From a virus (taxonomy: Duplodnaviria; Heunggongvirae; Uroviricota; Caudoviricetes), in the IMG/VR virus record IMGVR_UViG_2724679140_000008: 33,770 nt of DNA; one strand, given 5' to 3'. Every line of letters starts with the position of its first letter. Position 1 is the first letter of the stretch. Shown here piece by piece: positions 19,072 to 20,723 of the stretch. The translations under genes and the position numbers were made by a program. The notes under the pieces were generated by a model. The model made no database searches. It was not told where the DNA came from and saw only the letters and a list, made by a program, of their open reading frames with translations.

Positions 19072-19569
19072 CTACATCTGATATTTTTTATCTCTTAAAG
19101 ATTCATAAATCCGTTGACAAGTCACTCCTGCGATGTAGCGTTTGTCAGCAATTTCAGCATAAAGCTGAGCTTCTGCTGCAATATCTCCGAGCATGTTGGT
19201 GAGCATTCCTTCGGCGGCTTTGGTTGTTTTGCCTCTGACGGCAGCGGCAAGATTTGCGGTATGCTGCGCTGCGTCAAGGCGTATGGCATATTTTGTTGCT
19301 TCGGCACGCAGCTGGTTAACACTATCAGACAGATCAGCAGCCCTGGCAGAAATTTCAGCGGCTTTCTGTTGTGCATCTTTAACAGCCTCATCACGGGATA
19401 TACTTCGCCCCTGTTCAATTATTCGAGCAGCAAATTGGACATTTACCTCTTGAGATAATTCGGCAGCATCACGCTCCGCCCATTTTTTTTGCCATCCTCT
19501 GTCGCTCCAGACATTACCTACGACAAATCCTACCAACACGAGCAAAATCACCGTGAATATCTGATTCAC
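19072..19569 (-). CDS. Spanin inner-membrane subunit (Rz-like)
   Basis: N-terminal TM segment [21 protein letters not shown] followed by a coiled-coil periplasmic domain; ATGA overlap with the endolysin stop. Confidence 0.8.
19122..19376 (-). CDS. Spanin outer-membrane lipoprotein subunit (Rz1-like), embedded in Rz in another frame
   Basis: [23 protein letters not shown]... gives a signal peptide plus lipobox (LTSC) and a Pro-rich mature part, entirely inside Rz. The ORF track extends to 19418. Confidence 0.6.
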
Positions 19570-20099
19570 TGTTCTATCCCCCAGCAGGTTAATGCACTCT
19601 CCTGGTCACGACGAATAACCTGACCGTAACAATTATTTGAACGAATGCGGCAATCACGTCCACCGTCCTTTATCCACCAGCGAATCGCCTCGCATGCGCC
19701 TTTACGATCACCGGCATTAAGCCGCTTATAAAACGTCGACGGAAAACACTTACCAGGGCCAATGTTATAGGGACAGAATGACGCGATACCGGCTTTCTGT
19801 GGCTCGGTCAGTGGAACTTTTATATTGCGCTCCACCCATGCCAGCGCCTTATCACGCTCAATGGCGTTGACCTGGTCGCATTTTTCCTTCGACAGTTTCA
19901 TATTGGGAAAAACGTTTTTTCCATCCACCACTGTGGCACCCCGACAGATGGTCCATATGCCAGAACCATCGCGGTATGCCATTGTGTGGTTACCTTCTTT
20001 TTCGTCCAGAAACTGGTCAAGTATCTGAGGAGCAGATGCGCCAGCACCAATCAGCGCCAGAACGGCAGCCGACAGGCCGTATCTGATTTTTGTGTTCAT
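19566..20099 (-). CDS. SAR endolysin (phage lysozyme, T4-lysozyme-like fold)
   Basis: N-terminal signal-arrest-release segment [24 protein letters not shown], then the catalytic E-8aa-D-5aa-T pattern ([22 protein letters not shown]). Confidence 0.92.
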
Positions 20100-20407
20100 A
20101 GATATTTATGATGAGGACGCTCGTGCTTATTGGCAGGATTTTCAATCTTAAAGGAGTACTGATGCTGCAGATAAGACTCAACTTTTTCTGACAATTTTTC
20201 TGCTACTTCCAGGAAGACTTGCCGGACGCTCATTCTGGCTGCTGCCTCATAAAACTCCAGCGCAGCTCCTTCAACACGGTCCATGGCGACATCCAGGCCA
20301 AAAATTTCACCGTCAAAGCGTTCTTTGTCCTGTAAGGCTACAGTTACCGTAACTTTATTCTCAAAATTACGGACTCCTTTCACAACCAGTTCATAGTCTT
20401 GAGTCAT
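20096..20407 (-). CDS. ydfR: YdfR-like protein of unknown function inside the lysis cassette
   Basis: 103 aa, soluble, acidic; same size and position (between holin and lysozyme) as ydfR in Qin. Confidence 0.6.
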   Translation of the reverse strand: MTQDYELVVKGVRNFENKVTVTVALQDKERFDGEIFGLDVAMDRVEGAALEFYEAAARMSVRQVFLEVAEKLSEKVESYLQHQYSFKIENPANKHERPHHKYL

Positions 20408-20411
20408 TGGA

Positions 20412-20627
20412 TTACTCTCCTCTCGCAGCCTTACGCCTGTCTTCTTTAATCTTGAAATAAAGATTTGTCAGGTACGTCAGCAGGCCAAATACCAGGCTAC
20501 CCAGCACACCTATTGCTGCCCACTGTGAGGGCGTGACTTTATCGAGCAGCTGTAAAAACCAGTAGCCAGCACTGCCTGCGGAGGTGCCGTAGGCAATGCC
20601 TGTTGAAATTTTGTCCATGGATTTCAT
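20412..20627 (-). CDS. Pinholin, phage 21 S-type (class II holin) with dual start
   Basis: [71 protein letters not shown], near-identical to S21. Met1 and Met4 are the antiholin/holin starts; GGAGGTG RBS. The ORF track extends upstream to 20684. Confidence 0.9.
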
Positions 20628-20723
20628 AGCCTCACCTCCGCACGGAACGGATGGCATAGTTATTATGTGTAGGCTTCCAGACACATCAATCAGAGCCTTA
20701 ATTGATATATATGCTGGAGACGA

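Follow-up and report, generated by a model that had tools for sequence, protein, structure and literature searches.

What does a small soluble protein contribute to a phage when its gene lies exactly between the holin and the endolysin? The question is raised by a 33,770-nucleotide stretch of Caudoviricetes DNA (IMG/VR record IMGVR_UViG_2724679140_000008; this whole stretch is the window below), in which an initial annotation, made from the letters alone, had described a phage-21-type cassette of a pinholin, a signal-anchor-release (SAR) endolysin and embedded spanins, with an "extra" ydfR-like gene. We assign it, almost certainly, to the Qin-type pinholin/SAR-endolysin/embedded-spanin lysis cassettes, because five family matches, 100% DNA identity to annotated chromosomes and the same layout in a K-12 derivative agree. 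Overall, and with moderate confidence, we read the locus as a Qin-type cassette in which ydfR is an optional late accessory gene likely acting on host RNA metabolism. The features of the cassette are (lengths in amino acids, aa):

20412..20627, minus strand: holin gene (essD/essQ type, S21 family), 71 aa; PF04971; phrog_20/9876 "holin"; RefSeq essD on identical DNA
20096..20407, minus strand: ydfR, 103-aa DUF1327 protein; PF07041; 98% identity to K-12 YdfR
20180-20407, minus strand: ydfR core, residues 1-76; conserved; delimited by alignments
20099-20179, minus strand: ydfR tail, residues 77-103; variable, basic; delimited by alignments
20096..20099, minus strand: ATGA overlap of the ydfR stop (TGA) and the endolysin start (ATG); direct sequence reading
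19566..20099, minus strand: SAR-type endolysin (rrrQ type), 177 aa; PF00959; 3HDE and 4ZPU alignment; RefSeq rrrQ
20028-20081, minus strand: endolysin SAR segment, residues 7-24; 61% Gly/Ala/Ser; Kyte-Doolittle mean 1.67
19995-19997, 19968-19970 and 19950-19952, minus strand: codons of endolysin E35, D44 and T50
19072..19569, minus strand: i-spanin Rz (rzpQ type, DUF2514), 165 aa; PF10721; phrog_312
19122..19376, minus strand: o-spanin Rz1 (rzoQ type), 84 aa; +1 frame inside Rz; lipobox LTSC; phrog_11621

The lysis cassette and its place among known phages

Four nucleotides separate the holin stop codon (TAA) from the ydfR start, and at 19569-19566 a GTGA overlap lets the endolysin stop codon (TGA) share bases with the GTG start of Rz. 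PHROGs labels the products holin, unknown (the 103-aa protein), endolysin and Rz-like spanin, the embedded open reading frame (ORF) also matching a spanin PHROG, while RefSeq uses the names essD, ydfR, rrrQ and rzpQ on sequences 100% identical to the cassette. A 1,751-bp cassette stretch occurs at 100% identity in many E. coli chromosomes, and at least 80% of this query is covered in 2,096 of the 5,426 complete E. coli genomes (~39%). Gene order, spacing and overlaps are the same as those of essQ(essD)-ydfR-rrrQ-rzpQ/rzoQ in the Qin cryptic prophage of K-12, and a K-12 derivative carries the four cassette genes with the same overlaps. The arrangement is therefore not unusual but that of K-12 Qin; the cassette is already known, ordinary and annotated, and its "extra" gene is the catalogued ydfR.

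The surroundings differ from those in K-12: the prophage around the cassette of the window has kept its terminase, head and tail genes, and upstream of the holin are two genes for lipoproteins with a TolA C-terminal domain, where K-12 has cspB/cspF/ynfU. The full window is 99.93% identical to the rspAB-adjacent prophage of strain GB089, which retains Q, terminase, portal, capsid and tail genes. Phages in INPHARED carry the cassette as well, so the arrangement is not confined to cryptic prophages: the temperate coliphages mEp460_ev081, HannyBb, Tritos and PhiR42_1 have all of it, the 103-aa ydfR included, at 94-99.9% DNA identity, and their records annotate ydfR as "hypothetical protein." An Rfam scan found no RNA family within the cassette, a promoter/terminator scan of the region gave site counts not above shuffled expectation, and a literature search on rrrQ/essQ returned unrelated acronyms only. 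The cassette itself teaches nothing new; its value lies in the comparative constraints that it places on the function of ydfR.

The holin matches the Pfam family PF04971 ("Bacteriophage P21 holin S"; Phage_holin_2_1) with an E-value of 5.5e-36, its residues 5-67 covering profile positions 1-63 of 64, and it begins with MKSMDK, i.e., with dual starts at Met1 (20627) and Met4 (20618) and a Lys between them, as had been noted before. Its first hydrophobic segment is Gly/Ala/Ser-rich by inspection, and the second (residues 36-54) has a Kyte-Doolittle 19-residue mean of 1.72. By family match and dual-start sequence, the protein appears to be an S21-type pinholin. We set its start at 20627 because of the RefSeq annotation (216 bp on identical DNA) and the position of the Shine-Dalgarno sequence GGAGGTGA upstream of it (~20632-20639). 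The upper coordinate given originally, 20684, belongs to a mechanically extended GTG ORF.

The endolysin matches the PF00959 phage lysozyme family (E 6.2e-24) and aligns from residue 9 to the phage-21 SAR lysozyme (3HDE) and to RrrD (4ZPU), with the catalytic E35/D44/T50 (Glu-8 residues-Asp-5 residues-Thr) in register with R21 in the 3HDE alignment. The earlier assignment of an N-terminal SAR segment holds: residues 7-24 are rich in Gly/Ala/Ser, align with 3HDE and contain no Cys, the first Cys being residue 52, and the segment is predicted to stay uncleaved because a Pro follows ASA. The protein has eight Cys (52, 74, 109, 118, 136, 150, 157, and 172), all outside the SAR segment, a number that points to several disulfides in the periplasm and perhaps to redox dependence.

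Rz matches PF10721 (DUF2514; E 3.6e-38) and phrog_312 "Rz-like spanin" (E 4.3e-58), and its N-terminal transmembrane domain (residues 4-22) has a Kyte-Doolittle 19-residue mean of 2.34. The profile of the lambda/21 Rz family, PF03245 (Phage_lysis), gave no match to Rz, PF10721 being the sole Pfam match; Rz would work like lambda/21 Rz and, judged by its sequence, belongs to a different family. In the +1 frame of Rz lies an open stretch of 98 codons; shuffling the codons of Rz gave such a length in only 21 of 2,000 cases. The stretch holds Rz1, wholly embedded as first described, which matches phrog_11621 "Rz-like spanin" (E 2.3e-8) and is 84 aa long when counted from the ATG at 19376 (an alternative ATG is at 19391). 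The lipobox check that the initial annotation had proposed for Rz1 found LTSC, followed by a mature part of 62 residues with 9 Pro and 3 Cys. Rz1 occupies 0.39-0.90 of the length of Rz, a placement typical of embedded o-spanins (PMC6139136).

The pinholin/SAR-endolysin pathway with embedded spanins is textbook knowledge for phage 21 and has been reported for ~99% of Shiga toxin (Stx) phages (PMC6139136, PMC8136144, PMC10462455). The cassette resembles S21-R21-Rz/Rz1 in its PF04971 holin with Met1/Met4, its PF00959 SAR lysozyme and the location of Rz1 in the +1 frame of Rz. The designation "phage-21-type" is thus right as to holin family and SAR logic, but it does not extend to the spanin, which is of the DUF2514/RzpQ type and not PF03245, or to the endolysin, whose relationship to R21 is a distant one (E 1.2e-16). 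R21 presumably has fewer Cys than the eight found here, and S and R of phage 21 are taken to be adjacent genes. By homology to phage 21, on which each functional step of lysis is modelled here, the holin gene would give two products, antiholin from Met1 and holin from Met4. Sec would export the lysozyme, whose weakly hydrophobic N-terminal segment would keep it inactive on the inner membrane until pinholin triggering depolarised the membrane; the lysozyme would then be released, refold and degrade murein, and the Rz/Rz1 pair would finally breach the outer membrane.

YdfR and the module that carries it

YdfR matches PF07041 (DUF1327) with an E-value of 1.1e-51, residues 1-93 running across the 93-position profile, and 101 of its 103 residues are identical to those of K-12 YdfR (99.4% identity for ydfR DNA). 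No hydrophobic segment is present (the best 19-residue window has a Kyte-Doolittle mean of 0.67), and the protein is cytoplasmic, in agreement with the original description of a soluble ydfR-like protein coupled to the endolysin by ATGA. The isoelectric point (pI) is 5.55 overall, 4.6 for the acidic core and 8.45 for the basic tail. Among 15-24 diverse DUF1327 sequences, an N-terminal core of ~72-76 residues is conserved, with M1, Y5, Y53, E54 and A57 invariant. The tails are unrelated and exchangeable, giving proteins of 103, 104, 114-116, 176, 183, 211, 287, 296 and 329 aa. An AlphaFold2 model of YdfR, built from a 24-sequence alignment that included distant homologues (mean predicted local distance difference test score, pLDDT, 80.4), has a three-stranded beta-meander (residues 5-14, 18-27, and 34-43) and a long helix (residues 50-89); an alignment of just 12 sequences was too shallow for a usable model (pLDDT 50.7). 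Neither YdfR nor the long Stx-type tail drew a meaningful match in sequence searches of the PDB, and NCBIfam has no family for YdfR.

DUF1327 is a very small family, with 257-355 clusters among 5.8 billion and 75 representatives among 1.84 billion proteins. In the species-representative genomes of 185,579 species, a scan with a single peptide pattern, which would miss distant members, found it in E. coli, E. ruysiae, E. albertii and Shigella only; two further contigs from metagenome-assembled genomes (MAGs) resemble mis-binned coliphage DNA, and a scan of such genomes with the distant 72-aa DUF1327 group found no relative. Within E. coli, ydfR-like DNA is present in 3,450 of the 5,426 genomes, 1,788 of which have the near-full-length 103-aa type.

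Presence of the gene is optional. Phage records with DUF1327 number 100, as against 474 that match the holin-endolysin stretch, and the span from holin to endolysin is 738 bp in most Stx2a phages, i.e., there is no insert, compared to 1062 bp in this cassette and 1133, 1168, 1627, 1692 or 1734 bp in other phages. The Stx phages (ArgO145/933W type, BP-4795, Stx2_95) have an S21-family holin and the same type of endolysin, 79-82% and 88-90% identical, respectively, to those of the cassette. In BP-4795, Stx2_95 and PhiR5_1 a DUF1327 gene begins 3-4 nt past the holin stop, like in the cassette, whereas ArgO145 and most Stx2a phages have no insert. The Stx-type DUF1327 proteins (114-329 aa) share ~46% core identity with YdfR and do not overlap the endolysin, and their cassettes also differ from ours in having a PF03245-type Rz and, between R and Rz, an ant gene.

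The edges of the module can be read from ArgO145, in which the endolysin begins 4 nt past the holin stop, at the very spot where ydfR starts in occupied cassettes. An alignment of ArgO145 with BP-4795 places one edge at the stop codon of the holin and the other near codon 6 of the endolysin, and therefore the endolysin starts with MNTKIR in occupied cassettes and with MSRKLR in ArgO145. ydfR uses a ribosome-binding site in the 3' end of the holin gene, and in module-free cassettes the same site serves the endolysin; ydfR is, then, both optional and translated from a site within its neighbour. The ATGA overlap with the endolysin is confined to the 103-aa variant (the gap is 50 nt in BP-4795 and 36 nt in Stx2_95), and in this Qin-type variant endolysin translation probably depends on ribosomes finishing ydfR.

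The DUF1327 gene lies between the holin and an RrrQ-type endolysin in 11 of 11 Escherichia/Shigella-type loci with an S21-type holin (two of which are the mis-binned MAG contigs). Three more contigs (L023-L025) have it in the holin-endolysin junction behind a holin of another family, PF16080. In these metagenome contigs the gene is split into ORFs of 72 aa and 107 aa (96 aa in L024), apparently a frameshifted form of the 176-aa type; the 72-aa product is found on at least 10 contigs.

Homologues that stand alone (71-94 aa), with 33-48% identity to the YdfR core, occupy other late-region sites. In L011 the homologue follows the tape-measure gene, in L020 and L021 it separates the tail genes M and L, in L012, L013 and L022 it lies between I and J or behind K/I, and in L015 it comes immediately after Rz. 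The flanks of these distant homologues resemble phi80-like, Aeromonas-phage and Cronobacter-phage DNA. Since DUF1327 is found after a PF16080 holin, in tail modules and after Rz, ydfR has no fixed link to the pinholin. Such a distribution is what one expects of a mobile accessory ("moron") module rather than of a protein dedicated to lysis. Wherever gene calls or annotations exist for loci not of the Qin type (13 of 13), a convergent small soluble ORF comes right after the DUF1327 gene (surveyed in L011-L015, L018 and L020-L025, with 11 distinct partner ORFs tabulated). The partners, 70-186 aa long, come from several unrelated families, including phrog_25324 (99-101 aa) and DUF1823 (86 aa), and DUF1327 plus the convergent ORF may form a two-gene mobile module.

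Candidate roles for YdfR

YdfR is most likely a late-expressed cytoplasmic accessory protein and is probably not a component of the lysis machinery. The comparative facts, namely an optional bounded module, a core with exchangeable tails and relatives elsewhere, point away from a lysis function. The initial annotation had named absence of the gene from otherwise identical cassettes as an argument against such a function; cassettes of this kind do exist, joining holin directly to endolysin, although at ~80% nucleotide identity (endolysin 90% aa) rather than as exact copies. This absence from homologous cassettes argues against a core role in lysis, and our literature search found no link of DUF1327 to lysis.

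A lead to function comes from a 2026 study (PMC13232886). A two-hybrid screen there yielded the first 72 codons of K-12 ydfR three times, and in the bacterial two-hybrid system full-length YdfR gave a signal with Rne 1-597, i.e., the N-terminal domain of RNase E; Rne 1-598 co-eluted with Strep-YdfR from lysates, and the YdfR eluates also contained DNase-resistant nucleic acid, reported as RNA. The same study reported almost no ydfR reads in uninduced K-12 unless the gene was overexpressed, and because of this we propose that YdfR would be produced only alongside the late genes. It would then act on host RNA metabolism in late infection via RNase E's catalytic domain and/or RNA, and an action on lysis timing would be unlikely. 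The statement that the 103-aa gene has no known role was nearly true, but it is dated by this report and by the appearance of the ydfR deletion in the hit lists of an envelope-integrity (chlorophenol red-β-D-galactopyranoside, CPRG) deletion screen (PMC3879167 supplements). An action of YdfR through RNase E or RNA, for which a single paper gives the lead, we consider possible but rather doubtful. The wider proposal, with a DUF1327 core that is a phage RNase E modulator and/or RNA binder, mobile between lambdoid late-operon junctions, and with Qin-type endolysin translation dependent on ydfR, seems unlikely as a whole. If it were true, control of late RNA decay would be coupled to the lysis programme, and if YdfR associates with RNase E directly and to functional effect, it would be an instance, from temperate coliphages, of a phage protein directed at the host RNA decay machinery.

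Several points weigh against a role in host RNA metabolism that is separate from lysis. The RNase E association was obtained with overproduced, tagged YdfR, its directness was not shown and there was no nuclease-treated pull-down; for the RNA in the YdfR eluates, the authors did not exclude that a contaminant was its source; and YdfR overproduction changed few transcripts and left growth unaffected (PMC13232886). No experiment ties YdfR to phage biology, and comparison of the YdfR model with solved structures and predicted viral structures gave no convincing or informative relative. Finally, in all 14 Escherichia/Shigella loci sampled (11 with the S21-type holin and 3 with PF16080), DUF1327 lies exactly between the holin and an RrrQ-type endolysin, and some room is left for a lysis-related role of YdfR in this lineage.

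Such a role could take the form of cytoplasmic regulation of lysis timing, with the acidic core of YdfR binding the basic C-terminal tail that the pinholin/antiholin has in the cytoplasm or the cytoplasmic face of the tethered endolysin. T4 RIII, a cytoplasmic lysis-inhibition factor, would be an analogue of this logic. The invariant position in 14 of 14 Escherichia/Shigella-type loci, the tight coupling of ydfR expression to both neighbours and the low pI of the core (4.6) opposite a basic holin tail all fit it; however, ydfR is missing from most homologous Stx2a cassettes, DUF1327 also occurs behind an unrelated holin family, distant homologues lie in tail modules far from any holin, and the C-terminal tails are freely exchanged. 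We judge it quite improbable. Co-variation of holin and YdfR alleles was considered as a sign of interaction and rejected, as adjacency (linkage) explains it. One could instead suppose that the reading frame matters and not the protein, ydfR being a translational spacer that sets the endolysin:holin ratio by ATGA termination-reinitiation. In the 103-aa variant the endolysin start, which shares bases with the ydfR stop, lacks an evident Shine-Dalgarno sequence, and ydfR took over the ribosome-binding site that serves the endolysin in insert-free cassettes, as this idea would have it. But a mere spacer would hardly keep a protein core at 33-48% identity at unrelated genome positions, in other variants the DUF1327 stop and the start of the endolysin are 36-50 nt apart, and a specific protein partner, RNase E, has been reported (PMC13232886), so that we hold this very unlikely.

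YdfR could also be a moron-type fitness, anti-defence or exclusion factor unrelated to RNA decay or lysis, perhaps originally half of a two-gene module, in keeping with a mobile gene that is optional at several late-operon junctions and with the convergent ORF in 13 of 13 non-Qin-type loci. Yet those partners come from unrelated sequence families, the Qin-type variant has no promoter, terminator or convergent partner of its own, and the gene is silent in the uninduced lysogen (PMC13232886). The defence models of PADLOC-DB matched none of three DUF1327 variants, two TolA-like proteins and one convergent partner. The chance of this being the role of YdfR is, in our estimate, as slim as that of a regulator of lysis timing, and a late accessory protein likely acting on host RNA metabolism is the reading that we retain.

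Neighbouring genes and RNAs in the window

Directly upstream of the holin, the two TolA-like genes mentioned above are in tandem (20879-21274 and 21425-21853, both minus strand) and encode small lipoprotein-like products with the TolA C-terminal domain (PF06519; E 1.3e-14 and 2.4e-23, respectively). Ff phage g3p and group A colicins target this domain of TolA, and the two proteins could accordingly be decoys or exclusion factors. Between the TolA-like genes and the holin is a GC-rich hairpin with a T run, terminator-like in appearance (20736-20753, minus strand), and a weak promoter-like site lies at 20662-20689 (minus strand).

An Rfam match to the small RNA STnc100 (21964-22154, minus strand; 114 bits, gathering score 47) is flanked by the tRNA genes and the TolA-like genes and belongs to the late leader region. 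A cspA-type thermoregulator in the 5' untranslated region precedes cspI just downstream of the spanin genes (18450-18866, minus strand), and close to the window's dicB end is the antisense RNA DicF (33455-33506, plus strand). At 26385/26386 the window is short of 99 bp in comparison to GB089; the hokD start codon and about its first 29 codons, with the Hok membrane segment, are lost, and hokD is therefore inactivated. Downstream of Q are two phage-borne tRNA genes (22851-22927 and 23028-23103, both minus strand), one for Arg (TCT) and one with a CAT anticodon; the latter is Met according to ARAGORN and Ile according to RefSeq, and Ile would need lysidine modification.

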